Assembly (NCBI GenBank): GCA_026936045.1
Contig: JAIXKU010000215.1
Span: forward strand, 1-53,034
From: Flavobacteriales bacterium
GTDB taxonomy: Bacteria; Bacteroidota; Bacteroidia; CAIKAF01
Direction: 5' to 3'
DNA: 53,034 nt
In this document: in pieces, positions 1-44,269 of the stretch
How the letters are laid out: each line of letters begins with the position of its first letter
Numbering within the stretch: the first letter of the stretch is position 1
The notes under the pieces: model-generated
What the model was told of the DNA's origin: nothing
Seen by the model: the letters and a program-made list of their open reading frames with translations, nothing else
Databases searched by the model: none
Translations under genes and position numbers: made by a program

Positions 1-1
1 G

Positions 2-1423
2 AAATATTATTTGGGCATTGATCTAGGATCTACAACCTCTAAAGCAGTCATCATTGATGAAAATGATCAAATTGTTGGAAGAGGGATTACAAATACTCGA
101 GCAAACTATAAAGTAGCAGCCGATATTGCAAAAGACGAAGCTGTATATAATGCCCGTTTCTCTATTCTTAAAAAGAAACTGGAACAAGAAATTCAGGCAA
201 AACCCGCCTTTGCCAAATATATCTCTGATTTAGAAAGCATGTTCCAATACGAGCAATTTAAAGTGCGCCTTGACAAACTGGGTGATGAATTATTGAAAAC
301 ATGTAAAACATATTTTGCAGATGCTCAAACTCAGGAAGAAATGATTACACATCTGCGTAATATCCGTAAAATGTTCAAACCAAAGATTAAGCAGGATTAT
401 CTTTATAATAACCTCGGAGCAAAAAATCAGTTTTTTAGAGATATCGTTTCTGAAAAATATAATGAAGAGGTGGCTAAGCTTGAGATGGCATTGTTTGAAC
501 CTTTAATGACTGTTTGGGATAAGAGTATCAGCCCGGCTGAAAATGAACGTGTACTGTTCGATTTCAAAGAACTAGTAAACAAAGCCATGGAGGAACTTAA
601 AAAGAAATACGAAAATCTTCCTGATACCGTAGCAGAAGGTGTGAGCGTAAACTTTGATGCAGAGCTTAATCTCTTAAAAGGTGAGTTTGATCATGTAGAG
701 AAAACACTTCGTACACATATTGAAGAAATCGCTGATATGGATTTCAACATAGCAAATATGACAGGTACCGGTTATGGACGTGCCTTATTACCATTTCCTC
801 AGGAATGTATCCGCTCAGAAATTCTCTGCCATGCTTTTGGTGCGCATGCTGTGTTCCCAAATACAAGAACAGTACTTGATATCGGCGGACAAGATACAAA
901 AGCTATTCAGGTTGACCAGTATGGACTGGTTACAAGCTTCCAGATGAATGACCGTTGTGCAGCCGGTTGTGGAAGATATCTTGGATACATAGCCGACGAG
1001 ATGAGTATCTCGTTGAATGAACTTGGCCCAATGGCTATGAAAGCTGAGAAAGAAGTAAACATCTGTTCTACCTGTACGGTTTTTGCCGGTGCTGAATTGC
1101 GTGAATTAACTAACTTAGGTGAAAAACGCGAAGATATTCTTGGCGGATTGCATAAGTCAATCATCATGCGTGCTATGTCGTTGATAGCCCGTTCAGGTGG
1201 TGCTTTTAACGAGTTTACATTCACCGGTGGCGTAGCTAGAAATCCCGCTATTATCAAATACCTTGCTGAATTGGTTAGAGAAAACTACGGCGATCAAATA
1301 AAGATTAATATTGATGCCGATTCAATCTTTATGGGCGCATTAGGCGGTGCTCTCTTTGCACGTCAAAATATCAATACTGCATTACCAAACAGTAAGCAGG
1401 CTAAAAATGTAGAGCAAGATTAA
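2..1423 (+). CDS. BcrA/BadF-type (long form) ATPase subunit of an ATP-dependent benzoyl-CoA-reductase-like enzyme (BcrAD_BadFG / acyl-CoA dehydratase activase family); 5' end runs off the window
   Basis: The frame is open from nt 2 (KYYLGIDLGSTTSK), so the TTG at 11 is probably not the true start. Actin-fold phosphate-1 motif GIDLGSTTSKAV, then a roughly 200-aa helical insertion, then GTGYGR and DIGGQDTK. The two cluster-type Cys motifs are NDRCAAGCGRYL and CSTCTVFAGAE, followed by FTGGVARN. The 470+ aa size fits the long BcrA/BadF subunit rather than a 260-aa stand-alone activase. Confidence 0.7.
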   Translation, partial: KYYLGIDLGSTTSKAVIIDENDQIVGRGITNTRANYKVAADIAKDEAVYNARFSILKKKLEQEIQAKPAFAKYISDLESMFQYEQFKVRLDKLGDELLKTCKTYFADAQTQEEMITHLRNIRKMFKPKIKQDYLYNNLGAKNQFFRDIVSEKYNEEVAKLEMALFEPLMTVWDKSISPAENERVLFDFKELVNKAMEELKKKYENLPDTVAEGVSVNFDAELNLLKGEFDHVEKTLRTHIEEIADMDFNIANMTGTGYGRALLPFPQECIRSEILCHAFGAHAVFPNTRTVLDIGGQDTKAIQVDQYGLVTSFQMNDRCAAGCGRYLGYIADEMSISLNELGPMAMKAEKEVNICSTCTVFAGAELRELTNLGEKREDILGGLHKSIIMRAMSLIARSGGAFNEFTFTGGVARNPAIIKYLAELVRENYGDQIKINIDADSIFMGALGGALFARQNINTALPNSKQAKNVEQD

Positions 1424-1425
1424 TT

Positions 1426-2577
1426 ATGCCTCAAAGCATTCTCATACTCGGTGCGGGATTAATAGGTAAAGCCATTACTGCTGATTTATTTCAGGAATAT
1501 GACGTTACCTGCGCCGACCGTAATGAGCATGCGCTAGATTTATTAAATCAAGCCTATGGCGTAAAAACACTTGTTTTAGATGCTAATGATGACAACAGGC
1601 TGCAAAATGCCGTCCAGCCTTATGATCTTGTAATAATCGCTGTTCCGGGATTTATGGGATTCAACACTCTAAAAACGGTCATCAGCGCCGGGAAAAATAT
1701 CGTTGATATTTCTTTCTTTCCTGAAAATCCTTTTCTACTCGATCAAATGGCCAAGGAAAAGAATGTAACTGTCATAGTGGATTGCGGTGTTGCGCCCGGC
1801 TTGTGTAATATGTGGGCCGGGTATCAGGATATCCAGATGAAAATGCAGAGTTACGAATGCTTGGTAGGCGGTTTGCCCAAAGTAAGGGAATGGCCATTTG
1901 AATACAAAGCTGTCTTCTCGCCAGCAGATGTAATAGAGGAATATACCCGCCCTGCTCGATATATTGAAAATGGAAAGCAAATAGTAAGAGACGCATTATC
2001 CGATATCGAGCTTGTACAAATTGACGGTGTTGATACATTAGAGTCATTTAATACCGACGGCTTGCGTTCATTGGCACACACACTTTCGCACGTACCAGAC
2101 ATGAAGGAAAAAACACTCCGTTATCCCGGTCACGCAGCACTCATGAAGGTTTTTCGCTCAATCGGATTCTTTGAAAAAGAAGAGATCTCAGTTAATCATT
2201 CAACTGTTTCTCCTTTACAATTCGCATCCAGCCTTCTTTTTTCCAACTGGAAACTTAAGCCCAACGAAGAAGATTTTACAATCATGCGCGTAACGATGAA
2301 AGGTGAAGCAGCTAATGGAGAAAGCCGTATCGTTTGTTATACGCTGCATGATACGTATGATAAGAAACAAAATCTTACTTCTATGGCTCGAACAACCGGA
2401 TTCACATGTTCGGCAACAGCCCGCTTGATACTTAAAGGTATCTTTAATCGAAAAGGTATTTGCCCCCCCGAATATGTCGGCGCTGATCCTCAAGCTTTTA
2501 AAGAAATACAGACTTCCCTGAGTAATCGTAACATTAACATTAAAGAAGAAATATTGACACAGCAGAACATAAAGTAA
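1426..2577 (+). CDS. Saccharopine dehydrogenase-like NAD(P)-dependent oxidoreductase
   Basis: N-terminal Rossmann motif ILILGAGLIGKAI and a DCGVAPGLCN motif. The 383-aa two-domain length is typical of the saccharopine/lysine/carboxynorspermidine dehydrogenase family. Starts 2 nt after the upstream stop. Confidence 0.65.
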   Translation: MPQSILILGAGLIGKAITADLFQEYDVTCADRNEHALDLLNQAYGVKTLVLDANDDNRLQNAVQPYDLVIIAVPGFMGFNTLKTVISAGKNIVDISFFPENPFLLDQMAKEKNVTVIVDCGVAPGLCNMWAGYQDIQMKMQSYECLVGGLPKVREWPFEYKAVFSPADVIEEYTRPARYIENGKQIVRDALSDIELVQIDGVDTLESFNTDGLRSLAHTLSHVPDMKEKTLRYPGHAALMKVFRSIGFFEKEEISVNHSTVSPLQFASSLLFSNWKLKPNEEDFTIMRVTMKGEAANGESRIVCYTLHDTYDKKQNLTSMARTTGFTCSATARLILKGIFNRKGICPPEYVGADPQAFKEIQTSLSNRNINIKEEILTQQNIK

Positions 2578-2595
2578 TCGTTTAATACATCAATT

Positions 2596-3441
2596 ATGAG
2601 CAAATCTATTTATACGGCAGGTATAGACGTTGGCAGTAACTTTATCAAGTTAGTATTGGTAAAATATACTGCTGAAAATCCCGAGATTTTATATAAAGCA
2701 ACAGAAAAAATCCGTAAGCGTGATCCATCGGCTGTGGCTGATGAAATGTTATTAGCAATGTATAAGAAACTAAATATTTCTTACGAAGATATCGCTTATC
2801 TAGCTTCTACCGGTGAAGGGGATTTAATAAAACGCAAGAAAGGGCATTTCTACGGTATGACAACACATGCCAAAGGCGGACACTTCCTATATCCTGAAGC
2901 TAAAACCGTAGTGGATATGGGTGCGCTCTACGTACGCGCCATCAAAGTATCTAATGATTCAAAAGTGCAGGACTACAAAATGACCGGCCAGTGCGCTTCG
3001 GGTTCAGGACAGTTTATTGAAAATATTTCTCGCTACCTAGGCCTTTCTCTTGAAGAAGTAGGTGATGTTTCTCTTACTTCAGAAAACCCGGAGGTATCAT
3101 CCGGTATTTGTGCGGTATTAGCAGAAACGGACGTTATTAATATGGTGTCAAGAGGTATTACAACACCTAATATTATCAAAGGTATTCATATCTCTATCGC
3201 TTCCCGTATCATTAAACTTCTTACCTCCCTTAAGGCCGAATCGCCTATTATGCTTACCGGTGGTATGGCTTTAAATAAAGGTATGATACAAGCCATAGAA
3301 GAACAATTGGCTGAAACAGGTAAGAAATTCGAAATACACTCGCATCCGGATGCTATTTATGCCGGTGCACTTGGCGCTGCTTTATGGGGTGGATTCAGAT
3401 ATTATAAGATCAATGAGAAGAAAGAAGTAGTAGCTAATTAA
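2596..3441 (+). CDS. BcrD/BadG-type (short form) ATPase subunit, BcrAD_BadFG family
   Basis: GIDVGSNFIKLV, Cys motifs GQCASGSGQF and SGICAVLAETD, and LTGGMALN. 281 aa matches the short BcrD/BadG/HgdC size class. Confidence 0.7.
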   Translation: MSKSIYTAGIDVGSNFIKLVLVKYTAENPEILYKATEKIRKRDPSAVADEMLLAMYKKLNISYEDIAYLASTGEGDLIKRKKGHFYGMTTHAKGGHFLYPEAKTVVDMGALYVRAIKVSNDSKVQDYKMTGQCASGSGQFIENISRYLGLSLEEVGDVSLTSENPEVSSGICAVLAETDVINMVSRGITTPNIIKGIHISIASRIIKLLTSLKAESPIMLTGGMALNKGMIQAIEEQLAETGKKFEIHSHPDAIYAGALGAALWGGFRYYKINEKKEVVAN

Positions 3442-3451
3442 TAATTAATAT

Positions 3452-4561
3452 ATGAAAAAGTACCTCTCCACACTTGAAATGTTAGCTATGATGAGTTGTT
3501 CTGTCTTTGCTCAGATAACCATTACAGAGAATGACCTGCCCGAATCCGGTTTTACTTATATTGTAGATAACGACACCTCTACACAAGTGCTACTCGGCAC
3601 ACCCGGGCCATTAGCGCAAGCTTGGGATTACAGCATGCTGGCCAGTCATTACCCCAAAGTGCCTACCTATGACAGCACCATTCATACGGCTTATGCCGGT
3701 GCTTTCCCGGCATCTACACATTATACCTACGGCCCGGCTATAATGTATGGATCATTGTATGGTGGCGCACCGGTTGGTTCACAAGGTATGAATAACGGAT
3801 ATATGTTTTGGCGACGCGACATGACCGGTTTTTGGGTGGAAGGATTTTTGGCCGAACAAGGTACTTTTGCCGACGTAAATGTTTATTATACACCACAGGA
3901 ACTTTTAATCCCGGCACCGGCCACGTATGGTGATTCTTATAATAATACCAGCAATTGGGAATTATGGATGAATAAAAATACGGCTGATTATGATACACTC
4001 TATAGGTGTAATGTTACCAAAACGATCACCGTGGATGCCTTTGGCAGTCTTACTATTCCATCCGGCACCTTTAATTTCATAAGGTTTCATGAACATGTCA
4101 TAAAAGTGGATAGCATATTTGCAGTTCTTAATAGCATCCCACTTTACAGCATGGAATTTACGCGTGATACGTCCAATAATTATCTGTATTACTCCAACGA
4201 TGTAACTTATCCGCTTTGCAGCGTTCATGCCGATGCCAATAATTATATCAGATCAACAGAACATTTTGTGATTAAAGTGCCCATGAGCGCTGAAGAAGAA
4301 GAAACAGCAAATATACAACCGGTGGTTTTCCCCAATCCGGCTTCTTCTTTAATTCAAATAAGCATTCCTTATGGCCTTTCTGCAAATGAACCATGTATTA
4401 TCGTCATTTATGACCTTTCCGGTCGTCAGGTAATACATACCATTTCACAAAGTGAAACTATTAGTCTCTCAACAACTCATTTGCCAAATGGATTATATAT
4501 ATACACCATTACGAATCATAAAGGGAATATATATCAGGGTAAATTTATAATACGTAAATAG
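3452..4561 (+). CDS. Secreted protein of unknown function with C-terminal T9SS sorting domain
   Basis: Signal peptide ending SVFAQ. The C-terminal roughly 80 aa (nt 4313-4558) carry the T9SS CTD pattern VVFPNPASSLIQISIP ... NGLYIYTI ... GKFIIRK. Paralogous to the CDS at 40793-41899: both share AQITIT..D.P, WD[YF]S.L, YGDS, VD.[FW]G..T.P and the CTD. Confidence 0.7.
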   Translation: MKKYLSTLEMLAMMSCSVFAQITITENDLPESGFTYIVDNDTSTQVLLGTPGPLAQAWDYSMLASHYPKVPTYDSTIHTAYAGAFPASTHYTYGPAIMYGSLYGGAPVGSQGMNNGYMFWRRDMTGFWVEGFLAEQGTFADVNVYYTPQELLIPAPATYGDSYNNTSNWELWMNKNTADYDTLYRCNVTKTITVDAFGSLTIPSGTFNFIRFHEHVIKVDSIFAVLNSIPLYSMEFTRDTSNNYLYYSNDVTYPLCSVHADANNYIRSTEHFVIKVPMSAEEEETANIQPVVFPNPASSLIQISIPYGLSANEPCIIVIYDLSGRQVIHTISQSETISLSTTHLPNGLYIYTITNHKGNIYQGKFIIRK

Positions 4562-4564
4562 CGC

Positions 4565-6298
4565 GTGCAAGTTATCAAATCTGATATTACATTAGGCCAG
4601 ATAGTTCCAAACTTAGGTACTATGCTGGAAAGGAACGCTAAGCAGTTTGCCGAGAAACAGGTGTTTTTTGAGAAAGATGAATCCGGCACATATCAGGGTA
4701 TTACGTGGAAAGATTTCTATAATAATATTTTAAACATTGCTGCCAACTTGCAGTCATCCGGCTTTCAGAAAGGTGAAAAGATAGTAATCTTCTCACGTAA
4801 TTGCCTGCATATGCTTGAGGCTGAGCTGGCTATTATGGCGTCGGGAGGTATTGCCGTACCCATCTTTGCCAATTTTAAAAAAGAAACAGCAGCTTTACTT
4901 ATCAAACACTCTGATGCCGCCTATCTGATTATTGCCGGACAAACACAAAATGAGCAGTTGGAAGATGATTTGCATCTTAAACGTATTTGGACTTTTGAAG
5001 ACATATCACATCCCAGAATCTCAAATATTCATCCTTTCTCTGAATTATTAAAACCACGAAAGGATCAAAGTTTCCATCTTGATATCCATACACCGGCCGA
5101 TACCATTTGTCTAAATATGTACACCTCCGGCACAATGGGTGTTCCCAAATGCGTACAACTCACGCATAAGAATATCTTATCTCAGCAAGCGGCGTTAGAA
5201 AATATCTTAAACATTACACCTACTGATCGTTTCTTGGCATACTTGCCTTGGCACCATAGCTTTGGCGGTATCTTTGAACTTTTCTCTGCTTTATACAACG
5301 GCGCTCCGTTTTATTTGGAGAGCAGCTACGGGAAAGATGTAAATCAGATCTTTGAGAACTGGAGAAAAGTGAAGCCTACTGTTTTCTTCAGTGTTCCCAA
5401 AGTGTATCAGTCACTGTTTGAACTGGCTATGACAAGCCCCGAAGCCGAGAAGATGTTTTTTAATTCAGGATTGCGCTTTGTATTTACGGCAGCAGCAGCG
5501 CTACCGGAAAAGCTTTCAAACGAGTTTGAAAAACGAAATATACCCGTTATAGAAGGTTGGGGATTGACAGAAACCTCTCCTTGCTGCACCCTCACAGATC
5601 CTCGGTTAAAACGCATATCAGGCCTTGTTGGTAAACCTATCCCCGGTATCAGCATCCGTATTGCCGATGATGATGAAATTCAGGTGCAAGGACCAAATAT
5701 TATGGTGAGTTATTTTAATAATCCCGAAGCCAATGCACAAGCATTCACTGATGATGGCTGGTACAGGACCGGTGATGTAGGTGAAATTACACCTGACGGA
5801 TTACGACTGATAGCACGTAAGGATCGCATATTTAAACTTTCAAACGGCGAAAAGGTTATTCCCACTGATTTGGAGAAAGCCATTGAACGTACATGCCATT
5901 ACGTACAATATGTAGTGGTGGCAGGTAGTGGTGAAGAATACCCTGTCGCTTTAATTTTCCCAAATACAAAACTACTTGAGAGGCCCGACTATCAGGCTAC
6001 GCCCGATGAAGGATGCTTTTGCCCTCGATCGCTTCATGAATTAACCCGCTGCTTGCATGGTTGTTTGCTTAAAGCCAATGACAGCATTGGTCAGAAATTT
6101 TCAAAGGCACGTTTTGCCGCGCTGATTCGTGATGAACTTTCCTTAGAATCGAATACGTTAACACCTTCAATGAAAGTAGCGCCTAAGAATGTATTAGAGC
6201 GCTATAAAGCTCATTTAAAAAATCTATATGGTGATCATGTTCCTGTTTCAGAGGAAGTATTTGTAATAGAATTGGAGAACCCAAAAAGACAAATGTGA
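4565..6298 (+). CDS. AMP-forming acyl-CoA synthetase (long-chain acyl-CoA ligase type)
   Basis: Adenylate-forming motifs YTSGTMGVPKCV, GWGLTETS, GWYRTGDVG and RKDRIFKLSNGEKV. The C-terminal LTPSMKV tail and 577 aa length fit the ACSL/FadD-long type. GTG start 3 nt after the upstream stop. Confidence 0.85.
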   Translation: MQVIKSDITLGQIVPNLGTMLERNAKQFAEKQVFFEKDESGTYQGITWKDFYNNILNIAANLQSSGFQKGEKIVIFSRNCLHMLEAELAIMASGGIAVPIFANFKKETAALLIKHSDAAYLIIAGQTQNEQLEDDLHLKRIWTFEDISHPRISNIHPFSELLKPRKDQSFHLDIHTPADTICLNMYTSGTMGVPKCVQLTHKNILSQQAALENILNITPTDRFLAYLPWHHSFGGIFELFSALYNGAPFYLESSYGKDVNQIFENWRKVKPTVFFSVPKVYQSLFELAMTSPEAEKMFFNSGLRFVFTAAAALPEKLSNEFEKRNIPVIEGWGLTETSPCCTLTDPRLKRISGLVGKPIPGISIRIADDDEIQVQGPNIMVSYFNNPEANAQAFTDDGWYRTGDVGEITPDGLRLIARKDRIFKLSNGEKVIPTDLEKAIERTCHYVQYVVVAGSGEEYPVALIFPNTKLLERPDYQATPDEGCFCPRSLHELTRCLHGCLLKANDSIGQKFSKARFAALIRDELSLESNTLTPSMKVAPKNVLERYKAHLKNLYGDHVPVSEEVFVIELENPKRQM

Positions 6299-7515
6299 TG
6301 TATAAGATTAAGGCAACAGATACAATGAAGAAAATCATGGGAGACTATTTTCTCTCCCTTGAAAGCGGCAAGAAAAAAGTTGCCTGGTGTACCAGTGTCG
6401 GACCGGCAGAGTTGCTGCGCTCTTTCGGATTTGAAGTTTTCTTTCCTGAGAACCACGGCGCGTTATTAGGCGCTACACGCAAAGCAATGGATTATATTCC
6501 GGAGGCCATTCAACGTGGCTATTCAGGACATGTCTGCTCATACACTACCGCTGATATCGGTTCATATCTTAAAAAAGAATCGCCGCTAGTTTCACACTAT
6601 GGTATGAAAGGTCATCCAAAACCTGATTTAATAGCTTATAATACCAACCAATGTCGAGAAGTGCAGGATTGGTTTCAATTTTTTTCCGATGAGTTTGAAT
6701 GCCCTATTATCGGTATTACTCCTCCACGCTATGTTGACGAAGTAACACAGGATGAGATTGACCTTGTCGTAAAACAGTTTAAGAATATGATTCCTGTCTG
6801 TGAGCAAGTAAGCGGAAGAAAATTTAATGAAGAGGCTTTCAAAGAAACCGTACGTTTAAGTAAAGAAGCTACACTGCTTTGGCAAAAGGTGCTAAAAACT
6901 TCAACAGCAATGAATGCGCCTCTCAGTTTCTTTGACGGCACAATTCACATGGGCCCGATTGTGGTTTTACGAGGTACTCAGATAGCTAAAGATTATTATA
7001 CTCAACTTCTTGCCGAGTTGGGAAATAATGTCAAAAACAATGTCGGCTTTTTACCTAAAGCACGTACACGCATCTTTTGGGAAGGCATGCCGATATGGGG
7101 AAAGCTGCGTATGCTAAGCGACTTGTTTATGGATAACGGTGCCGCAGTCGTTGCTTCTACATATTGTAGCAGTTGGGTGTTTGATAAGTTTGACGAGAAC
7201 GATCCCTGGAACTCTACAGCTCGTGCCTATACAGAAATTTTCATTAATCGCAGCGAACGAATAAAAATGCAGATGCTGACAGATTGGTTTAAAGAGTACA
7301 GCATTGATGGTATAATTTTTCATGATTCAAAAACGTGTTTCAATAACTCCAATGCCAAGTTTGGCATGCCTCAGAAATTACAAAAAATGACCGGTGTGCC
7401 GTCTCTTGTAATAGAAGGTGACTTGTGTGATCTGCGATTCTTCAGTGAAGGTCAGAGCATGACAAAGATTGAAACATTTATTGAACAATTGGAAGAAATA
7501 AAAGAAAACGGATGA
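6295..7515 (+). CDS. 2-hydroxyacyl-CoA dehydratase / benzoyl-CoA reductase B/C family (HGD-D) subunit
   Basis: 406 aa with family-typical segments VAWCTSVGPAELLRSFGFEVFFPENHGA, HVCSY, NQCRE and FHDSKTCFNNS. GTG at 6295 or ATG at 6298, overlapping the ligase stop (ATGTGATG). Confidence 0.7.
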   Translation: MMYKIKATDTMKKIMGDYFLSLESGKKKVAWCTSVGPAELLRSFGFEVFFPENHGALLGATRKAMDYIPEAIQRGYSGHVCSYTTADIGSYLKKESPLVSHYGMKGHPKPDLIAYNTNQCREVQDWFQFFSDEFECPIIGITPPRYVDEVTQDEIDLVVKQFKNMIPVCEQVSGRKFNEEAFKETVRLSKEATLLWQKVLKTSTAMNAPLSFFDGTIHMGPIVVLRGTQIAKDYYTQLLAELGNNVKNNVGFLPKARTRIFWEGMPIWGKLRMLSDLFMDNGAAVVASTYCSSWVFDKFDENDPWNSTARAYTEIFINRSERIKMQMLTDWFKEYSIDGIIFHDSKTCFNNSNAKFGMPQKLQKMTGVPSLVIEGDLCDLRFFSEGQSMTKIETFIEQLEEIKENG

Positions 7516-9347
7516 GTAAAAAATCGGAACCTATACGCGCCTTGGTAATAGGGCTTGGTCCTGTTGGCATGATACTTTCCGTCAAGCTTCAGCAGGCCGG
7601 TTGTCATGTGGCACTCTGTGAAGCCAACGAAAACAAGGCTGAGAAGATAAAAACAGATGGCATTATCTTAGAAAACGTATTCAATGAGAAAGCCCATTTT
7701 GAAGATGTTTATACACGCATAGAAGATGCCAAAGATTTTGATGCCGATTATATATTCTTTGCTTTAAAGACAACTCATACACCGGATGCTGTCAAGAAAG
7801 CTGAATCATTCATTACATCTAAAACAATAGCTGTTTCTGTTCAAAATGGCATTGATACAGAACTTATGCTCGTTGCCGGTTTTGGAGAAAACAGAACACT
7901 GCGTATGGTAGTAAACTATGCCGGTAATACCACATCTCATAATACAACAAGAGTTACGTTCTTTACACCGCCTAATTATATTGGAAGTATTAATGATGTT
8001 GCTAAAGACAGAGCCGCTGAATTAGCGTCAATTCTTACCGGCGCCGGACTTGAAACCAAAGATGTCTCTTCCTTTGAGCTGATGAAGCGCATATGGGAAA
8101 AGACCATTCTTAATACCTCGCTCAGCGCACTGTGTGGTGTAAGCCGTCTTACAATGGCTGAAGCCATGACAGACCGAGATACACTTGAACTTATTGAACA
8201 AATCATTCAGGAGGGTATTGAAGTGGCTCGCGCAGAAAGAATCATCTTCCCCGATGAATTCTTGCGTCAATGTATGCGCTATCTGAAGAAAGGAGGCGAT
8301 CACTTCCCATCTTTGGCTGTCGATCTAATAAATAATCGTCCTACAGAAATAGATTTTCTAAATGGAAAGATTGTTGAATATGGCAGAAAGCATTATATAC
8401 GCACTACACTCAACTTAGCAATGACCAATATGGTTAAGGCTATGACAAGCAAAAATATTTTATCCCGTGTACCCGGTGCTGCAGGCGATATCACTAAGAA
8501 GATAATCGAGAAAGGCATAGTTGACAAAAATATTCTGCCGGCTCAATTAAAATCCGTATCGGCCTACTTAGGTATAGACCTGGGTTCTGCTTATACCAAG
8601 TTCAGTGTGATTGATGAAAATGGGAAAACACTTTTCAGGTATTTCCTTCCTACACTTAGCAGCGATAAGCAGACACGAATTCAGGTCATGCAGGCCATCG
8701 CGTCCAGCTTTAATGTTCAATACAGCTGTGCTACCGGCTACGGCCGCAAGCATTTTACCGAAACAGATATTGTTAAAACAGAAATAAACTGCGCTGCGGC
8801 AGGTGTTTCTTTTACTTATCCCGGAGAGAAAAATATTATTGACATTGGTGGAGAGGATATCAAAGTTATCCGTTGTGATGCGGATAATAATGTATTGAAT
8901 TTCTATATGAATGATAAATGTGCCGCCGGCACCGGTTCCTTTCTTTCCGAAATTGCCGAACGAGCCAATATCAATATCAGCGAGATGAGTGGGTTGGCAT
9001 CCTTATCAACATACGATAAAGAACTTAATAGCTTCTGCACCGTATTTGCCAAAACCGAAATCATGAACTGGATCTTTGATGGCATGTCATTGCAAGATAT
9101 TGCCAGAGGTATTTATATCTCTATCGCCAACAAGGTTGCAAAAATGCGCTTAGATCCAGGTATCCCGACCTATATGATAGGTGGTGTCATTGCCCATCAT
9201 CCGTATTTAAAAACATTGCTGGCTGAAAAATTCAATAAGAAGATTGAGATTATGGATCATCCACAATTTATCGTCTCTCATGGCGCTGCGGTTATAGCCA
9301 TGCAAACCCACCAGAAAAAGAATAAACAATCTGCTGTAACGGCATAG
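7512..9347 (+). CDS. Fusion protein: N-terminal 2-dehydropantoate reductase-like (PanE/ApbA) domain + C-terminal BcrAD_BadFG activase-type ATPase domain
   Basis: aa 8-312 (nt 7533-8447): Rossmann VIGLGPVG, WEKTILN, SLAVDLINNRPTEIDFLNGKIVEYG (PanE/ApbA C-terminal signature). aa 351-611 (nt 8562-9347): YLGIDLGSAYTKF, ATGYGR, DIGGEDIK, Cys motifs NDKCAAGTGSFL and NSFCTVFAKTE. One uninterrupted 611-aa frame. The ATG overlaps the upstream stop (ATGA). Confidence 0.8.
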   Translation: MSKKSEPIRALVIGLGPVGMILSVKLQQAGCHVALCEANENKAEKIKTDGIILENVFNEKAHFEDVYTRIEDAKDFDADYIFFALKTTHTPDAVKKAESFITSKTIAVSVQNGIDTELMLVAGFGENRTLRMVVNYAGNTTSHNTTRVTFFTPPNYIGSINDVAKDRAAELASILTGAGLETKDVSSFELMKRIWEKTILNTSLSALCGVSRLTMAEAMTDRDTLELIEQIIQEGIEVARAERIIFPDEFLRQCMRYLKKGGDHFPSLAVDLINNRPTEIDFLNGKIVEYGRKHYIRTTLNLAMTNMVKAMTSKNILSRVPGAAGDITKKIIEKGIVDKNILPAQLKSVSAYLGIDLGSAYTKFSVIDENGKTLFRYFLPTLSSDKQTRIQVMQAIASSFNVQYSCATGYGRKHFTETDIVKTEINCAAAGVSFTYPGEKNIIDIGGEDIKVIRCDADNNVLNFYMNDKCAAGTGSFLSEIAERANINISEMSGLASLSTYDKELNSFCTVFAKTEIMNWIFDGMSLQDIARGIYISIANKVAKMRLDPGIPTYMIGGVIAHHPYLKTLLAEKFNKKIEIMDHPQFIVSHGAAVIAMQTHQKKNKQSAVTA

Positions 9348-9457
9348 CATAAGACCATTCCCGACTTGAGAAAACAAGTCCTTATACAGGTTACAGACGA
9401 AAAAAAATAAATGCTTAGCATGTGTTCAAATATCATCCGAAGCTCAAAAAAAACGAC

Positions 9458-9465
9458 TAATTTTG
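9458..9465 (+). promoter_or_regulatory. Candidate Bacteroidota -7 promoter box (TAATTTTG) upstream of the had-like gene
   Basis: Exact match to TAnnTTTG, 7 nt before the ATG at 9473. It lies in the only sizeable gap (125 nt) of the cluster. Confidence 0.3.
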
Positions 9466-9472
9466 ATGCGCT

Positions 9473-10531
9473 ATGAATAAAATACATCAATGGCAGATGA
9501 CTGCCTTAAAAACCCCTTTCTCTCTTGTCAGTTCTGATATGCCGACTATTCAATCCAATGAAGCATTGGTAAAAGTGGCCGGTTGCGGTGTCTGTCATAC
9601 CGATATCAGTTTTTGGAATGACGGTGTACGTACAAAAAAAGACTTACCCCTTACATTAGGTCATGAAATCAGTGGAATCGTTCTTGACGGGCCTGAGCAT
9701 CTCAAAGGGAAGAATGTTATCATTCCTGCTGTTTTACCCTGCGGTGAATGCGACTTATGTAAGAAAGGACGAAGCAATATTTGCCAAAATCAGTTGATGC
9801 CCGGCAATGATTTTCATGGTGGTTTTGCCTCCCATATCGTGGTGCCGCATAAATATTTATGTCCTGTACCCGATTCTGTTCTACAAAAATATGCGCTTGA
9901 GCAGCTTGCCGTAATTGCCGATGCCATCTCTACACCTTATCAGGTGATAAAAAAATCAGAGTTGGAGCCCGGTGATTTAGCTATCGTCATTGGCGTGGGT
10001 GGAGTAGGTGTGTACGGCGCCTTAATCGCTAAGATTATGGGAGCTAAAGTTTTGGCTATCGACATTAGTGATGAAAAATTAGAAGCCGCTAAACGTAATG
10101 GCGTGGATGCTACACTTAACTCTAAAGGCATGGATATAAAAGAGATTAAGAATCAGGTAAAAGTTATTGCACAAAACCTGGGCGCTCCCAAATACGGTTG
10201 GAAAATTTTTGAAATATCCGGCACAGCTCCAGGACAGGAGTTGGCCTTCAACCTCATTACGTTTACATCCACATTGAGCATTGTTGGCTTTACAATGACA
10301 AAACCCGATGTCAGACTTAGTAATCTGATGGCGTTTGATGCAAAACTTATAGGCACATGGGGTTGTAAACCCGAGTTATACCCGGAAGTAGTGGCATTGA
10401 TTGATTCAGGAAAATTAAAAATCAATGATTTTGTACAAATATTTCCAATGTCTAAAATTAATGACGTGTTTGCCGACACCTTGGCTCATAAGTTTGATAA
10501 GCGCTCAGTACTCGTTCCTGATTTTAATTAA
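9473..10531 (+). CDS. had: Zn-dependent medium-chain alcohol dehydrogenase, 6-hydroxycyclohex-1-ene-1-carbonyl-CoA dehydrogenase (Had)-like
   Basis: Catalytic Zn motif VAGCGVCHTD...GHEISG, structural Zn CGECDLCKKGRSNIC, NAD fold VIGVGGVGVYG. Sits immediately upstream of the Oah- and Dch-like genes. Confidence 0.65.
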   Translation: MNKIHQWQMTALKTPFSLVSSDMPTIQSNEALVKVAGCGVCHTDISFWNDGVRTKKDLPLTLGHEISGIVLDGPEHLKGKNVIIPAVLPCGECDLCKKGRSNICQNQLMPGNDFHGGFASHIVVPHKYLCPVPDSVLQKYALEQLAVIADAISTPYQVIKKSELEPGDLAIVIGVGGVGVYGALIAKIMGAKVLAIDISDEKLEAAKRNGVDATLNSKGMDIKEIKNQVKVIAQNLGAPKYGWKIFEISGTAPGQELAFNLITFTSTLSIVGFTMTKPDVRLSNLMAFDAKLIGTWGCKPELYPEVVALIDSGKLKINDFVQIFPMSKINDVFADTLAHKFDKRSVLVPDFN

Positions 10532-10557: not shown

Positions 10558-11661
10558 ATGGAAGCATTAAACAATCACAATCTTGTTGAAGGGTATAATT
10601 ATACCGAGATTTTATTTGAGAAGAGACCTTGTCTCAATACCGACGGTACACCCGTTAACGGGTTGTATAATGCCTGGATTATTCTGAATAATCCTAATCA
10701 GTACAACTCTTATACAACAAAGGCTGTCAAAGAGATTATTTTAGCATTTGGTGAAGCTTCCAATGACAGAAGCGTAGTAGCGGTTGTCTTTACCGCAGTG
10801 GGCGATAAGGCTTTCTGTACGGGAGGTAATACAAAAGAATATGCAGAATATTATGCCGGTAATCCGCAAGAATATTCACAGTACATGCGCCTATTCAATG
10901 ATATGGTTTCGGCTATTCTTAAATGCGAAAAACCGGTTGTTTGTAGAGTAAACGGTATGCGTATCGGAGGTGGGCAAGAGATTGGCATGGCTGCCGATTT
11001 TACTGTTTCTTCAGATATGGCTAGATTTGGACAGGCAGGCCCTAAACACGGCAGTGCCGCTATTGGTGGCGCTACCGATTTTCTGCATCTGTTTATAGGT
11101 ATTGAGCGCGCTATGAACTCTTTAACGCTTTGCGAACCTTGGACGGCTCATCAGGCATTCCATTTAGGCCTGATTACAGATATCGCACCCGTTCTGAAAC
11201 TAGATGGGAAATTTATTCCCAATCCATTGGTTGTGCTTGATAAATATGCTGACGAGTACGGGAAACCTATCTTCGGCTCCATGAAAACCGGTGAAGAATT
11301 AGCCCAAGCAAAAGCCTTGATGGCCAAAGCGGAAGTGGATCTGTCGAAATTGGATGATGCGGTCAATAAATTAATTGCGAAGTTGCTCCATACATTCCCC
11401 AATTGTACCAATAAAACACTTTCTGAAGTAAGAAAGAAGAAATTAGAACATTGGGATAAAAACAAAGAAAGCAGCAGAGAATGGTTGGCTTTGAATATGA
11501 TGACAGAAGCTAAGGCCGGATTCAGAGCCTTTAACTATGGCTCAAAGAACGACCGTGAGATTGATTTCATCAAACTTCGTCTGTTACTAGCCGAAGGGAA
11601 AGAGTGGAATGAGGCTATGCATCAAACTATTTCGCCTCAGTTCAAAACAGAAAAAGCCTAA
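10558..11661 (+). CDS. oah: 6-oxocyclohex-1-ene-1-carbonyl-CoA hydrolase (ring-cleaving crotonase, Oah/BamA)-like
   Basis: 367 aa long-form crotonase. Long stretches match what I recall of BamA/Oah proteins: YNAWIILNNPNQYNSYTT, DKAFCTGGNTKEYAEYYAG, EYSQYMRLFNDMVSAIL, CRVNGMRIGGGQEIGMAADF, FGQAGPKHGSAAIGGATDF, WLALNMM.EA..GFRAFN. Confidence 0.8.
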   Translation: MEALNNHNLVEGYNYTEILFEKRPCLNTDGTPVNGLYNAWIILNNPNQYNSYTTKAVKEIILAFGEASNDRSVVAVVFTAVGDKAFCTGGNTKEYAEYYAGNPQEYSQYMRLFNDMVSAILKCEKPVVCRVNGMRIGGGQEIGMAADFTVSSDMARFGQAGPKHGSAAIGGATDFLHLFIGIERAMNSLTLCEPWTAHQAFHLGLITDIAPVLKLDGKFIPNPLVVLDKYADEYGKPIFGSMKTGEELAQAKALMAKAEVDLSKLDDAVNKLIAKLLHTFPNCTNKTLSEVRKKKLEHWDKNKESSREWLALNMMTEAKAGFRAFNYGSKNDREIDFIKLRLLLAEGKEWNEAMHQTISPQFKTEKA

Positions 11662-11686
11662 GACAACACAAAAAACATAATTGATT

Positions 11687-12460
11687 ATGGAAAAGATTGT
11701 TTTATCCTATTCCTATAACGATAGCATTGCTCATATCTTGCTCAATGACGGAAAAGGTAACGTATTGGATAATGTTATGATGCTCGAAATTTTGGACTGT
11801 TTACAGCAGATTCAAAAACAAAACAACATCAAGCTTATCACGTTTCAGGGAGAGGGAAAACATTTCTCTTTCGGCGCCAGCGTGGAGGAGCATACTCAAG
11901 ATCTAGCGCCGGTTATGCTTCAGACTTTTCATAAAATCTTTCTGACATTAGTTGAAATGCAGGTGCCAACATTGGCCAAGATCTCCGGTCAATGCTTGGG
12001 TGGCGGGCTCGAACTAGCATTAATCTGTAATTTCCTTTTTGCTGATAAAACAGCCAAACTTGGGCAGCCGGAGATTGTACTGGGTGTGTTCCCTCCTCCA
12101 GCCTCCATTATTCTGCCGGAAAAAATCGGGTTGGCACGTGCAGAAGAATTATTGCTGACTGGCCGAACAATGGATGCTACAGAAGCCCTTCAAATGGGTT
12201 TGATAAACCATATCTTTGAAGATAAAGAAGCTTTGAATATTGGCACAAACGAATGGATTGAGAAATATATCCTTCCCAAAAGTGCTTCTTCTCTACGATT
12301 TGCCACCAAAGCAGCCAGAATTAAATTCCATCATGTGCTAAATAATTTTCTCCCACAGCTTGAAGCCTATTATACGCGTCAGCTTATGACTACACACGAT
12401 GCCAATGAAGGAATACAAGCTTTTCTTGAGAAAAGAAATCCAGACTGGAAAAACCTATAA
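11687..12460 (+). CDS. dch: Enoyl-CoA hydratase (crotonase), cyclohexa-1,5-diene-1-carbonyl-CoA hydratase (Dch)-like
   Basis: About 257 aa crotonase with FSFGASVEEH, GQCLGGGLELALICNF and GQPEIVLGVFP. Position after the oah-like gene. First ATG is at 11687 (the ORF track starts at TTG 11681). Confidence 0.6.
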   Translation: MEKIVLSYSYNDSIAHILLNDGKGNVLDNVMMLEILDCLQQIQKQNNIKLITFQGEGKHFSFGASVEEHTQDLAPVMLQTFHKIFLTLVEMQVPTLAKISGQCLGGGLELALICNFLFADKTAKLGQPEIVLGVFPPPASIILPEKIGLARAEELLLTGRTMDATEALQMGLINHIFEDKEALNIGTNEWIEKYILPKSASSLRFATKAARIKFHHVLNNFLPQLEAYYTRQLMTTHDANEGIQAFLEKRNPDWKNL

Positions 12461-40543: not shown

Positions 40544-40620
40544 GGTCTGGTAGTTCAGCTGGTTAGAATACGTGCCTGTCACGCACGGGGTCGCGGGTTC
40601 GAGTCCCGTCCAGACCGCCA
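40544..40620 (+). tRNA. tRNA-Asp (anticodon GTC), CCA encoded
   Basis: Hand-folded cloverleaf: acceptor GGTCTGG/CCAGACC, D-arm GTTC..GAAT, anticodon stem CGTGC/GCACG with loop CTGTCAC, T-arm GCGGG-TTCGAGT-CCCGT, discriminator G, CCA. 77 nt. Confidence 0.9.
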
Positions 40621-43366: not shown

Positions 43367-44269
43367 TTACTTTCTTTTGGCTCTCGGATGAAACTCATCA
43401 ATGGTTTTTCGTAAAAAAGTGCGATCAAGATGCGTGTAAATCTCGGTGGTTGTAATACTCTCATGACCAAGCATTTGCTGAACCGCTCTTAAATCTGCAC
43501 CGTTTTCTACCAAATGAGTAGCAAAAGAATGGCGAAACGTGTGCGGAGAGATGTTTTTCCTGATACCGGCTTTTGTTGCCAGGTCTTTAATCATTGTAAA
43601 AACTGCCACCCTGCTGATTTGGGTTCCTTTGCTTTGATTGATAAAAACAACATCTTCGGCTTCTTTTGCCACATGCCAATGTGTTCTGACACGGTGTATG
43701 AAATGAGCAATCTGTTCAAGTGTATGCGGGTCTATGGGAACCAGCCTTTCTTTATCTCCCTTTCCTCTGACTCTGATAAATTCATCAGTAAAAAATATAT
43801 CTGAAATTTTGAGTCCGGTCAGCTCACTCACTCGCAATCCGCACGCATAAAGGGTTTCTATCATGGCGAGGTTGCGTTCTCCATCTCTTTTGCTGCGGTC
43901 TATGCAATTGAGCATTCGCACAATTTCTTCATAAGATAGTACGGTGGGTAGTTTGCGCGGATTTTTGGGTAACTCGATGCTATCCATAGGATTGCGCTCG
44001 GTTAAATTTTCCAAAATCAGATATTTATAAAACTGCCTTAAACCTGATATAATACGCGCTTGACTTGTGCCACTAATGCCAATTTCATTCAAAAATGTGA
44101 TAAATCCTTTGAGGTCTTTTGCGGTTAATTTTTCCGGACTTTTACTTTCGTTTATATACTGAATCAACTTGCTGACATCCTGTAAATAGGCTTGAACTGA
44201 ATTCTTTGAAAGGGACTTTTCGAGCGTAAGATAGTGAGAAAAACCTTTATAGACAGTAGCCCAACTCAT
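43367..44269 (-). CDS. xerD: Tyrosine site-specific recombinase XerD
   Basis: 300 aa. N-terminal SAM-like domain (FSHYLTLEKSLSKNSVQAYLQDV), catalytic GLRVSEL, HTFRHSFATHL, LGHESITTTEIYTHL. Confidence 0.8.
   Translation of the reverse strand: MSWATVYKGFSHYLTLEKSLSKNSVQAYLQDVSKLIQYINESKSPEKLTAKDLKGFITFLNEIGISGTSQARIISGLRQFYKYLILENLTERNPMDSIELPKNPRKLPTVLSYEEIVRMLNCIDRSKRDGERNLAMIETLYACGLRVSELTGLKISDIFFTDEFIRVRGKGDKERLVPIDPHTLEQIAHFIHRVRTHWHVAKEAEDVVFINQSKGTQISRVAVFTMIKDLATKAGIRKNISPHTFRHSFATHLVENGADLRAVQQMLGHESITTTEIYTHLDRTFLRKTIDEFHPRAKRK

Follow-up and report, generated by a model that had tools for sequence, protein, structure and literature searches.

The locus considered here raises the question of why a reductase of the PanE/ApbA family is joined, in a single polypeptide, to the ATP-hydrolysing activator of acyl-CoA dehydratases, and of what such a protein might do within an operon for the degradation of benzoyl-CoA. 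The locus lies in a stretch of 53,034 nucleotides from a Flavobacteriales bacterium (contig JAIXKU010000215.1 of the GenBank assembly GCA_026936045.1), which was analysed at its full length and is called the window in the following. The fusion protein of 611 aa, encoded by the open reading frame (ORF) 7512..9347 (+), is labelled FUS, and the product of the preceding gene (6295..7515, +), a lone protein of the HGD-D family, is labelled H3; Act stands for the activase and PanE-like for the reductase half. The fusion had been singled out in an earlier note made from the letters of the window. The module to which FUS belongs is built from familiar parts and is widespread, and its function is read here from sequence and gene context. 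We favour, with slightly less than even confidence, the view that a CoA ligase, the PanE-like reductase, H3 and the activase work as one module that would feed aromatic 2-oxo and 2-hydroxy acids into the benzoyl-CoA pathway encoded by the same operon.

The Fusion Protein and Its Domains

The FUS gene is one ATG-initiated frame of 611 codons with zero internal stops. The earlier note had described a single 611-aa frame with ApbA and ApbA_C, a linker of ~40 aa and a BcrAD_BadFG ATPase carrying both cysteine motifs, and each of these elements was found again by translation and by annotation with Pfam (gathering cut-offs) and NCBIfam (model cut-offs). According to Pfam, ApbA covers residues 11-158 (72 bits, cut-off 22), ApbA_C residues 190-311 (100 bits, cut-off 23) and BcrAD_BadFG residues 353-596 (131 bits, cut-off 31.5, over the full profile, 1-271/271), while the NCBIfam models for apbA_panE (TIGR00745) and for the acyl-CoA dehydratase activase (TIGR00241) score 169 bits (cut-off 141) and 164.5 bits (cut-off 125.4), respectively. 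All the motifs quoted in the note are present: GLGPVG at 14-19, WEKTILN at 195-201, S267..D271..R276.TE279IDFLNG285, NDKCAAGTGSF at 467-477 and FCTVFAKTE at 508-516.

The N-terminal domain belongs to the PanE/ApbA family by Pfam, by TIGR00745 and by fold, since Foldseek gave TMt values of 0.83-0.86 to structures of ketopantoate reductase (KPR) and D-mandelate dehydrogenase. Conservation was followed in two alignments, the first of 83 sequences (the window FUS and 82 relatives, each from an independent genome assembly) and the second of 48 (the window FUS and 47 database proteins), and in both of them G14, G16, G19, N112, K197, N201, S267, D271, E279 and N284 are invariant. The catalytic set of KPR is therefore complete in FUS, with K197, E279, N112, N201 and S267 placed in the family motifs WEKTILN, TEID and QNG and invariant in 48-83 homologues; their counterparts in E. 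coli KPR, which we take to be K176, E256, N98, N180 and S244, are assigned by motif correspondence and not by alignment to 1ks9. Moreover, H264 is invariant and falls within a G-x-H-x-P-S motif common to the D-mandelate dehydrogenases. When a profile of the PanE-like subfamily (A2) was scored against PDB chains, the D-mandelate dehydrogenases 3wfi (152 bits) and 8wl1 (147 bits) came well before E. coli KPR (1ks9, 68 bits), in agreement with the fold search, in which TMt reached up to 0.86 to 5x20, 3wfj and 5hws. A true ketopantoate reductase was considered for this domain and rejected, given that every NCBIfam equivalog of KPR stays far under its cut-off (for example 118 vs 252 and 103 vs 500 bits), that the D-mandelate dehydrogenases are nearer and that the context is catabolic. 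On these grounds, the name "2-dehydropantoate 2-reductase", automatically attached to proteins of the FUS type, is probably a misnomer.

The C-terminal domain is a member of the acyl-CoA dehydratase activase family by its ASKHA fold and by its family score. Its best PDB matches are HadI (4eht, 2.6e-40), MbdQ (9gai_D, 1.1e-38), HgdC (1hux, 3.2e-33) and DCCP-R (7yyl, 3.1e-32), and its fold gives TMt values of 0.83-0.87 in the Foldseek search, or 0.84-0.87 to HadI, HgdC and MbdQ. The two cysteines that would bind the cluster, C470 (in NDKCAAGTG) and C509 (in SFCTVFAK), are invariant in both alignments and aligned with those of HadI, MbdQ and HgdC, with an equal spacing of 39 residues; in HgdC the ligands are presumably C127 and C166. 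FUS fails the NCBIfam equivalogs of the ATPase subunits of benzoyl-CoA reductases, with 108, 74 and 81 bits for BcrA, BcrD and BzdQ vs cut-offs of 578, 313 and 380. The AF2 model of the full FUS (mean predicted local distance difference test score, pLDDT, of 79.6) bears on the suggestion, also found in the earlier note, that a structure prediction might reveal whether the two domains pack together: both domains fold confidently, but the model gives no reliable inter-domain geometry, with a predicted template modelling score (pTM) of 0.50 and pLDDT <50 at residues 300-324.

Authenticity and Distribution of the Fusion

A fusion seen once could be an artefact, that is, two genes joined by a sequencing or assembly error, and in principle an error of one base could mimic it, as unfused relatives exist in which the stop of one gene overlaps the start of the next. 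The earlier note had asked that such an error be excluded. The fused ORF is intact in 82 of the 83 related, independently assembled loci, which, within the limits of sequence comparison, rules out a frameshift or a missed stop, and at least 120 full-length protein clusters have the same architecture. Furthermore, the linker of ~40 aa has no counterpart in the unfused genes and is itself moderately conserved (mean conservation of 0.67 vs 0.28 for the C-terminal tail in the 83-sequence alignment), P321, G322 and G335 being invariant. The artefact was therefore rejected, its probability being practically negligible, and the alignments indicate that the fusion is real and under purifying selection along its length.

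Relatives of FUS were sought by three routes. A word-indexed protein search returned the at least 120 full-length FUS clusters just mentioned (65-100% identity) out of 855 matches, all from metagenomes or metagenome-assembled genomes (MAGs) and named either "2-dehydropantoate 2-reductase" or "(R)-2-hydroxyacyl-CoA dehydratase activating ATPase". A scan of GTDB, with one genome per species, gave 148 matching stretches, nearly all in bins of Bacteroidota, Ignavibacteria or Chlorobiota, the carriers among the Bacteroidota being Vicingaceae, other Flavobacteriales, Saprospiraceae and Chitinophagales. In an exhaustive search of 1.84 billion representatives at 50% identity, the architecture is represented by three or four clusters (among them P0121, P0122 and P0123, with 53%, 44% and 40% identity). 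The fusion is thus abundant yet phylogenetically narrow. GC content is uniform, about 0.40, and gives no signal of horizontal transfer. The FUS nearest to that of the window (83% identity) lies on a contig, JACSSC010000026.1 (L004), binned as "Candidatus Competibacteraceae" (Gammaproteobacteria); the gene content of this contig, including a Por_Secre_tail protein, looks Bacteroidota-like, and the contig is probably mis-binned.

The earlier note had called the combination of domains unfamiliar, and this stands in part: our literature search found no account of it in characterised systems, but the architecture is common, being present in hundreds of proteins from Bacteroidota, Ignavibacteria and Chlorobi MAGs. 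No description of the FUS fusion, or of this operon type in Bacteroidota and Ignavibacteria, was found in that search, nor one of a lone alpha-type catalytic partner, of a ligase replacing the transferase or of the placement of such a module inside an oxidative benzoyl-CoA operon of Bacteroidota, Ignavibacteria and Chlorobi. The sole related idea that it found is a hypothetical scheme, proposed for a benzene-degrading sulfate reducer, leading from phenylpyruvate through phenyllactyl-CoA and cinnamoyl-CoA to benzoyl-CoA (PMC13416013).

The Catalytic Partner H3 and the CoA Ligase

H3 matches only chains of the alpha type. Among PDB entries its best matches are HadB (3o3m_A, 1e-46), which is the substrate-binding alpha subunit of 2-hydroxyisocaproyl-CoA dehydratase, and MbdO (2.6e-32), and a profile of the H3 subfamily (A3) ranks HadB (208.6 bits) above MbdO (164) and BzdO (111) and far above DCCP (21). 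The three cysteines expected of an HGD-D protein as cluster ligands are in place, C81, C120 and C348 being invariant in the 74 sequences over which the conservation of H3 was measured and aligned with cysteines of HadB, MbdO and BcrB. A motif of the form TSVxPxEL...FPEN is held by H3 in common with HadB rather than with BcrB or MbdO. H3 is not, for all that, a HadB equivalog: its score is 217.5 bits vs a NCBIfam cut-off of 750, and against the BcrB model it reaches 169 vs 487, so that it is best described as a separate clade placed roughly between HadB and BcrB. It has additional conserved cysteines, C32 and C291 being invariant and C378 present in 98.6% of the sequences (position 378 is an asparagine in a fusion of PanE with HGD-D at the locus L084, described below); these might bind a second cluster or serve catalysis. 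The possibility that H3 is a double-cubane protein of the DCCP type was also considered, and found weak (21 bits by profile, and 65 bits over a partial match vs a cut-off of 350 for the NCBIfam model double_cubane).

ORFs were labelled in ~170 related loci (numbered L; P numbers denote protein clusters). In nearly all of them there is one HGD-D gene per activase, the other HGD-D genes being bcrB and bcrC, and a beta-type HGD-D gene was not found beside H3; H3 therefore does not form part of an evident alpha-beta pair, and a few unfused loci have, instead, a second H3-Act pair. As to the ligase encoded just before H3, no canonical benzoate-CoA ligase is among its listed NCBIfam and PDB matches, and it is not close to any characterised enzyme.

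Gene Order in Related Operons

The usual order in the related loci is bcrC-bcrB-bcrA-bcrD, encoding the class I benzoyl-CoA reductase of the Thauera type, followed by a CoA ligase, H3 (400-410 aa), FUS, a thiolase, had, oah, dch and a 3-hydroxyacyl-CoA dehydrogenase/enoyl-CoA hydratase (HCDH-ECH). H3 adjoins the activase gene or domain in nearly all loci in which both are on the contig, and a thiolase of 417 aa is present in 63 related loci, where it mostly follows FUS. In nearly every locus with enough flanking sequence the module is accompanied by bcrCBAD, had, oah and dch, and a complete bcrCBAD is present in every sufficiently flanked fused locus as well as in most unfused ones. The position of the ligase is occupied either by an AMP-forming enzyme (about two thirds of the fused loci) or by an ADP-forming synthetase (ACSadp) whose best NCBIfam matches are hydroxyacid-CoA ligases, and the two are mutually exclusive.

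Several other genes recur around these operons. An Hcr-like molybdenum enzyme is frequently encoded at their flank, with MobA/XdhC maturation genes alongside, and its best match is the alpha subunit of 4-hydroxybenzoyl-CoA reductase (818 bits, below the cut-off of 995); a 2-oxoacid:acceptor oxidoreductase of the KorAB type adjoins 22 loci, and a GltD/NuoG-like Fe-S flavoprotein is near the operon in 5. An aminotransferase of the HisC type (AAT; TIGR01141, 314 bits vs 277) is encoded on the strand of the operon, among its genes or beside them, in 7 loci, for example in the orders "H3 FUS AAT THL" and "PanE AAT PanE" (THL, thiolase); among those 7, it is found twice between two PanE paralogues. 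In the unfused loci L118, L122 and L128 (at about 8.6-11 kb in L128) two PanE-like paralogues flank an aminotransferase of this type, and an 851-aa GltD/NuoG-like NAD(P)H Fe-S flavoprotein is encoded beside the H3 and Act genes. In ~10 loci (L001, 14132-17951; L086, L089 and others) the module is followed by HydA and HydB, similar to caprolactamase and acetophenone carboxylase, together with RidA, an acyl-CoA dehydrogenase (ACAD) and a DUF35/thiolase pair. A further ORF of 155 aa (U155), located between H3 and FUS in 9 loci, was examined as a hidden beta subunit or ferredoxin and discarded, as it has zero Pfam matches and is absent from the window.

Unfused Relatives and Alternative Fusions

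The nearest non-fused relatives of the two halves of FUS, a free PanE-like protein (45-46% identity) and a free activase (50%), are encoded in the same operon and in the same order. In L170 and L171 this order is bcrA-bcrD-ligase-H3-PanE(321 aa)-Act(265 aa)-thiolase-had-oah-dch-Hcr-like, with the stop of PanE overlapping the start of Act, and the arrangement in L086, L087 and L089 is similar. A metagenome scan seeded with free PanE-like proteins revealed operons with the same genes shuffled, as in "C B A D ACSadp PanE Had Oah Dch H3 Act THL ACAD"; in these the PanE-like gene keeps beside the CoA ligase and H3 beside Act, a pairing that would follow if the free acid were the substrate of PanE and ligase and the CoA ester that of H3 and Act.

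Other fusions join the same parts. P0142 (728 aa) is a fusion of the PanE-like subfamily to HGD-D, followed by a free activase gene and then by an Hcr-like enzyme, and in P0134 the PanE-like subfamily is fused to a crotonase. At L084 (10001-18157) the 728-aa PanE-HGD-D fusion and the free activase adjoin a molybdenum enzyme of the xanthine dehydrogenase family (Fer2, FAD_binding_5, MoCoBD, XdhC, MobA-like), and benzoyl-CoA reductase (BCR), ligase, had, oah and dch were not found within 10 kb of the fusion. PanE-Act fusions themselves occur in at least two to three lineages, the second and third with other linker lengths and outside the main clade of a crude neighbour-joining tree made with no bootstrap, which suggests that the fusion arose more than once.

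A Possible Route From Aromatic 2-Oxo Acids to Benzoyl-CoA

Taken as Rosetta-stone evidence, the unfused neighbours, the shuffled pairs and the alternative fusions argue that ligase, PanE-like reductase, H3 and activase work together. The earlier note had already suggested that a step from 2-oxoacid to 2-hydroxyacid is coupled to the adjacent HGD-D protein and the ligase, and this is the reading that comparative genomics supports best (unfused H3-PanE-Act triplets, fusions of PanE with HGD-D and with an enoyl-CoA hydratase, ligase beside PanE), but the note had missed the benzoyl-CoA operon around them, which makes an aromatic substrate likely. In the form preferred here, to which we give a chance a little under one half, the four components would form one module taking an arylpyruvate through the aryllactate, its CoA ester and cinnamoyl-CoA to benzoyl-CoA.

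In this scheme, the N-terminal domain of FUS would be an NAD(P)H-dependent reductase that forms the (R)-2-hydroxy acid from a bulky and probably aromatic 2-oxo acid, the candidates for the latter being phenylpyruvate or 4-hydroxyphenylpyruvate formed from phenylalanine or tyrosine by an aminotransferase, and the ligase would convert the hydroxy acid into its CoA thioester. In the homodimer expected of the activase domain, C470 and C509 would hold a single bridging [4Fe-4S] cluster, and ATP hydrolysis would drive the transfer of one low-potential electron to the [4Fe-4S] cluster of H3; H3, which we infer to be a dehydratase working with no beta subunit, would then turn the 2-hydroxyacyl-CoA into the enoyl-CoA (cinnamoyl- or 4-coumaroyl-CoA) by ketyl-radical dehydration. 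Hydratase/dehydrogenase and thiolase, the latter encoded after FUS in most relatives, would shorten the enoyl-CoA to benzoyl-CoA, and 4-hydroxybenzoyl-CoA would be dehydroxylated by the neighbouring Hcr-like molybdenum enzyme. Finally, BcrCBAD would dearomatise benzoyl-CoA, and Dch, Had and Oah would open the ring. FUS itself would have originated by the joining of two adjacent, translationally coupled genes, and the purpose of the fusion is probably stoichiometric co-production or co-assembly.

The context is taken as aromatic because BcrCBAD, Had and Oah score near or above the NCBIfam equivalog cut-offs (with the bcrA-like gene below) and because the best match of the Hcr-like enzyme is the alpha subunit of 4-hydroxybenzoyl-CoA reductase. 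The substrate is probably phenylpyruvate or 4-hydroxyphenylpyruvate on account of the benzoyl-CoA operon, the likeness to D-mandelate dehydrogenases, the thiolase and hydratase/dehydrogenase downstream, the frequent Hcr-like enzyme and the HisC-type aminotransferase. As to the direction, the couples of 2-oxo and 2-hydroxy acids lie near -190 mV vs -320 mV for NAD(P)H, so that reduction is thermodynamically favoured; this, together with the mutual replacement of AMP- and ADP-forming ligases, favours the reductive direction and the passage from acid to CoA ester.

A number of observations weigh against this proposal. To our knowledge, the characterised 2-hydroxyacyl-CoA dehydratases (HgdAB, HadBC, FldBC and LcdAB) are all alpha-beta heterodimers and the known systems rely on a CoA-transferase and not on a ligase, whereas here a single HGD-D gene is present besides bcrB and bcrC and the beta subunit is missing. 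H3 scores far under the HadB equivalog cut-off and is just moderately closer to HadB than to BcrB, and its extra invariant cysteines are not seen in HadB. The sole ligase could be the benzoate-CoA ligase of the operon, which would leave the hydroxy acid with no activating enzyme; the aminotransferase is found in just 7 of the ~170 loci; and the operon of the window is devoid of the thiolase and HCDH-ECH that the beta-oxidation steps need. The PanE-like domain is only 22-24% identical to D-mandelate dehydrogenases, and the AF2 model predicts no confident arrangement of the domains (pTM 0.50). Moreover, no cultured organism was identified among the carriers of FUS, and the support for the proposal is comparative.

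Alternative Explanations

The near-obligatory company of bcrCBAD, had, oah and dch could also mean that the module serves the far end of the pathway. Glutaryl-CoA derived from the ring would be oxidised to glutaconyl-CoA, hydrated by H3 and Act to (R)-2-hydroxyglutaryl-CoA, freed of CoA (with a gain of ATP where the synthetase is ADP-forming) and oxidised by PanE to 2-oxoglutarate, from which KorAB would reduce the ferredoxin needed by BcrCBAD, so that the supply of low-potential electrons would sustain itself. Such a sequence (thiolase, acyl-CoA dehydrogenase and H3, then CoA removal and PanE) is matched by the orders "H3 Act THL ACAD" and "ACSadp PanE", KorAB-type genes adjoin the 22 loci already mentioned, and in Thauera aromatica a 2-oxoglutarate:ferredoxin oxidoreductase is the electron donor system of BCR. 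This exit is nonetheless unlikely: about two thirds of the fused loci encode AMP-forming ligases, which do not cleave CoA esters, and a CoA-transferase or thioesterase is not present; NAD(P)+ would have to oxidise a 2-hydroxy acid in a strongly endergonic step; the likeness of the PanE-like domain is to D-mandelate dehydrogenases, whose substrates are bulky and hydrophobic, and not to known 2-hydroxyglutarate dehydrogenases; and the aminotransferase within the operon is left unexplained. A wider form of the argument, equally unlikely in our estimate, holds that, in the Bacteroidota, Ignavibacteria and Chlorobi, the benzoyl-CoA pathway cannot do without the module, which would be integral to it rather than a peripheral feeder, either through the conversion of ring-derived glutaconyl-CoA to 2-oxoglutarate with KorAB as a self-priming electron loop (two low-potential electrons for each next reduction of benzoyl-CoA) or as a radical enzyme of a new kind, driven by ATP and made of one subunit, with an NAD(P)H-dependent partner reaction built into it; this wider form is compatible with the association of the module with bcrCBAD, which is near-universal, and with the frequent adjacency of KorAB.

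The place of H3 between HadB and BcrB leaves room for another explanation, a rather doubtful one, in which H3 and the activase are a second, simplified ATP-dependent reductase, similar to BCR or to the double-cubane enzymes, acting on a substituted aryl-CoA or another substrate that is hard to reduce, with PanE reducing a keto group of its product or precursor. In fact, H3 also matches BcrB (169 bits), MbdO (164) and BzdO (111), it has the cysteines C32, C291 and C378 beyond the three cluster ligands, the activase domain matches MbdQ as well as HadI, and a lone HGD-D protein with a dedicated ATPase is known in the homodimeric DCCP:DCCP-R (7yyl/6eno); at L084, moreover, the trio is linked solely to an Hcr-like molybdenum enzyme, with no BCR within 10 kb. 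On the other side, no reductase subunit comes as near to H3 as HadB does, H3 has a HadB-like N-terminal motif and is remote from DCCP (21 bits), the operons already encode a full BcrCBAD, a reductase would need ATP and electrons in stoichiometric amounts, for which a homodimeric activase of the HadI type is less expected than a module of the BcrAD type, and the tight pairing of PanE with the ligase is left unexplained, as is the aminotransferase. That FUS and H3 are the only benzoyl-CoA reductase of their operon, an idea prompted by L087, where bcrCBAD is not found within 6 kb upstream, is unsupported, a complete bcrCBAD being present in all the sufficiently flanked fused loci and most unfused ones. 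The earlier note had also proposed that the PanE domain is an electron-input module through which NAD(P)H, in place of ferredoxin, reduces the [4Fe-4S] cluster of the activase; an NAD(P)H-binding domain is indeed covalently joined to a cluster-carrying ATPase, and Pfam annotation of the window ORFs found no ferredoxin gene in the operon. Enzymes of the PanE/KPR fold, however, transfer hydride with no flavin or metal and contain nothing that converts two-electron into one-electron transfer, the catalytic residues that bind a 2-oxoacid are all invariant, which implies that the domain acts on a real organic substrate, a free PanE-like gene is found beside the ligase and far from Act in many relatives, separate donor candidates are encoded in related operons (KorAB and the GltD/NuoG-like flavoprotein), and the packing of the domains in the AF2 model is not confident, all of which makes electron input of this kind very improbable.

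Comparison With Known Systems

The feeder module preferred here follows the same logic of parts as LdhA-HadA-HadI-HadBC of C. difficile, FldH-FldA-FldI-FldBC of C. sporogenes and HgdH-GctAB-HgdC-HgdAB of A. fermentans, each of which combines an NAD(P)H-dependent 2-oxoacid reductase, an activation with CoA, a [4Fe-4S] activator and an HGD-D catalyst; to these dehydratase systems, known from Clostridia and other anaerobes that ferment amino acids, the activase domain is related by its matches to HadI and HgdC and H3 by its best match to the alpha subunit HadB. The differences are equally evident, since the reductase of FUS is of the PanE/D-mandelate dehydrogenase family and not a D-isomer 2-Hacid_dh, and is fused to the activator; one HGD-D subunit is found, with no beta subunit; an AMP- or ADP-forming ligase stands in the place of the CoA-transferase; and the module is located in an oxidative benzoyl-CoA operon instead of a reductive Stickland or fermentation operon.

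For the N-terminal domain, the D-mandelate dehydrogenases of Enterococcus faecium (3WFI/3WFJ/5X20) and Lactobacillus brevis (8WL1) are the best solved homologues by profile and among the best by fold. They share with FUS the catalytic set of Lys, Glu, Asn and Ser and a G-x-H-x-P-S-x-x-x-D motif, but are free-standing proteins of lactic acid bacteria with no tie to CoA-ester metabolism. BcrCBAD and the 3-methylbenzoyl-CoA reductase MbdONPQ (9GAI) belong to the same superfamilies, HGD-D and BcrAD_BadFG, and Bcr is encoded in the same operon as FUS; with its own complete bcrCBAD, however, the operon holds FUS and H3 as additional components, both under the Bcr equivalog cut-offs. A precedent for a homomeric catalytic component is offered by DCCP/DCCP-R (6ENO, 7YYL) and by the YjiL/YjiM-type systems of E. 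coli, in which a lone protein of the HGD-D type has one dedicated activase, although H3 matches DCCP weakly and those systems do not have a fused reductase domain.

Were the feeder reading correct, an abundant and almost entirely uncultured group of Bacteroidota, Ignavibacteria and Chlorobi living in sediments, groundwater and bioreactors would possess an undescribed route by which aromatic amino acids or aryl-lactates pass through an aryl-lactyl-CoA dehydratase and beta-oxidation to benzoyl-CoA and complete anaerobic degradation of the ring. H3 would be the first enzyme of the 2-hydroxyacyl-CoA dehydratase type with a single HGD-D subunit, and FUS would contain both the first activator naturally fused to the dehydrogenase of its pathway and the first PanE-family enzyme recruited to CoA-ester radical chemistry, in which case hundreds of database entries named "2-dehydropantoate 2-reductase" would be mis-named. 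FUS is, in addition, well suited as a marker gene by which operons of this type can be recognised in metagenomes.

Gene Content of the Window

The features of the operon in the window are collected in Table 1. The bcrA-like frame is open to base 2 of the window, and bcrC and bcrB lie directly upstream in all relatives with longer flanks (429 bits vs a NCBIfam cut-off of 421 for bcrC, and 657 vs 487 for bcrB). The apparent lack of the core subunits of the reductase is thus an effect of the window edge, and the earlier note was mistaken in speaking of a missing ferredoxin system, the window being cut inside bcrA and relatives often having KorAB nearby as well. The junctions between ligase and H3 and between H3 and FUS are overlaps of 4 nt, which points to translational coupling. 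Between FUS and had there is a gap of 125 bp (9348-9472) where other operons have the thiolase, and the HCDH-ECH gene is likewise absent from the window.

Table 1. Features of the benzoyl-CoA operon encoded in the window.
Feature	Position	Strand	Remarks
bcrA-like ATPase subunit, class I benzoyl-CoA reductase	1..1423 (ORF 11..1423)	+	Cut by window start; Benz_CoA_red_A 440 bits, below 578
Saccharopine-dehydrogenase-like (SacDH-like) gene	1426-2577		Between bcrA and bcrD
bcrD-like ATPase subunit, class I benzoyl-CoA reductase	2596..3441	+	TIGR02261 316.5 bits, above 312.85
Por_Secre_tail protein gene	3452-4561		Between bcrD and ligase; sorted by the type IX secretion system (T9SS), presumably secreted
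AMP-forming acyl-CoA ligase, 577 aa	4565..6298	+	Pfam AMP-binding 232 bits; stop overlaps H3 start
H3, lone HadB-alpha-like HGD-D protein, 406 aa	6295..7515	+	Pfam HGD-D 199 bits; stop overlaps FUS start (ATGA)
FUS, 611 aa	7512..9347	+	PanE/D-mandelate-dehydrogenase-like domain aa 8-312, linker aa ~313-352, HadI/HgdC-type activase aa 353-596
PanE-like reductase domain of FUS	7533..8447	+	Rossmann GLGPVG; KPR/D-mandelate dehydrogenase catalytic set
Inter-domain linker of FUS (aa ~313-352)	8448..8567	+	Moderate conservation; helix predicted 323-335; low AF2 confidence at its start
Activase (archerase) domain of FUS	8568..9299	+	ASKHA ATPase motifs GIDLGS 354-359, DIGGED 444-449, GGV 557-559; ligands C470, C509
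had, 6-hydroxycyclohex-1-ene-1-carbonyl-CoA dehydrogenase	9473..10531	+	TIGR03201 445 bits, above 338.65
oah, 6-oxocyclohex-1-ene-1-carbonyl-CoA ring-opening hydrolase	10558..11661	+	TIGR03200 590.6 bits, above 464
dch-like cyclohexa-1,5-diene-1-carbonyl-CoA hydratase	11681..12460	+	TIGR03189 best match, 229.7 bits, below 292.5

The insertions of the SacDH-like and Por_Secre_tail genes are found also in L004, L015 and L033, and the same arrangement is compatible with L028, where the flanking sequence begins at the SacDH-like gene. Outside the operon, the sole tRNA gene of the window (tRNA-Asp, GTC; 40544-40620) lies ~2.7 kb from a gene for a tyrosine recombinase of the phage integrase family (43367-44269), a possible integration hotspot. 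Near the end of the window, an ORF of 343 aa (51934-52965) encodes a multicopper oxidase/cupredoxin protein that may be a NirK-like nitrite reductase, hinting at a denitrifying or microaerobic lifestyle.

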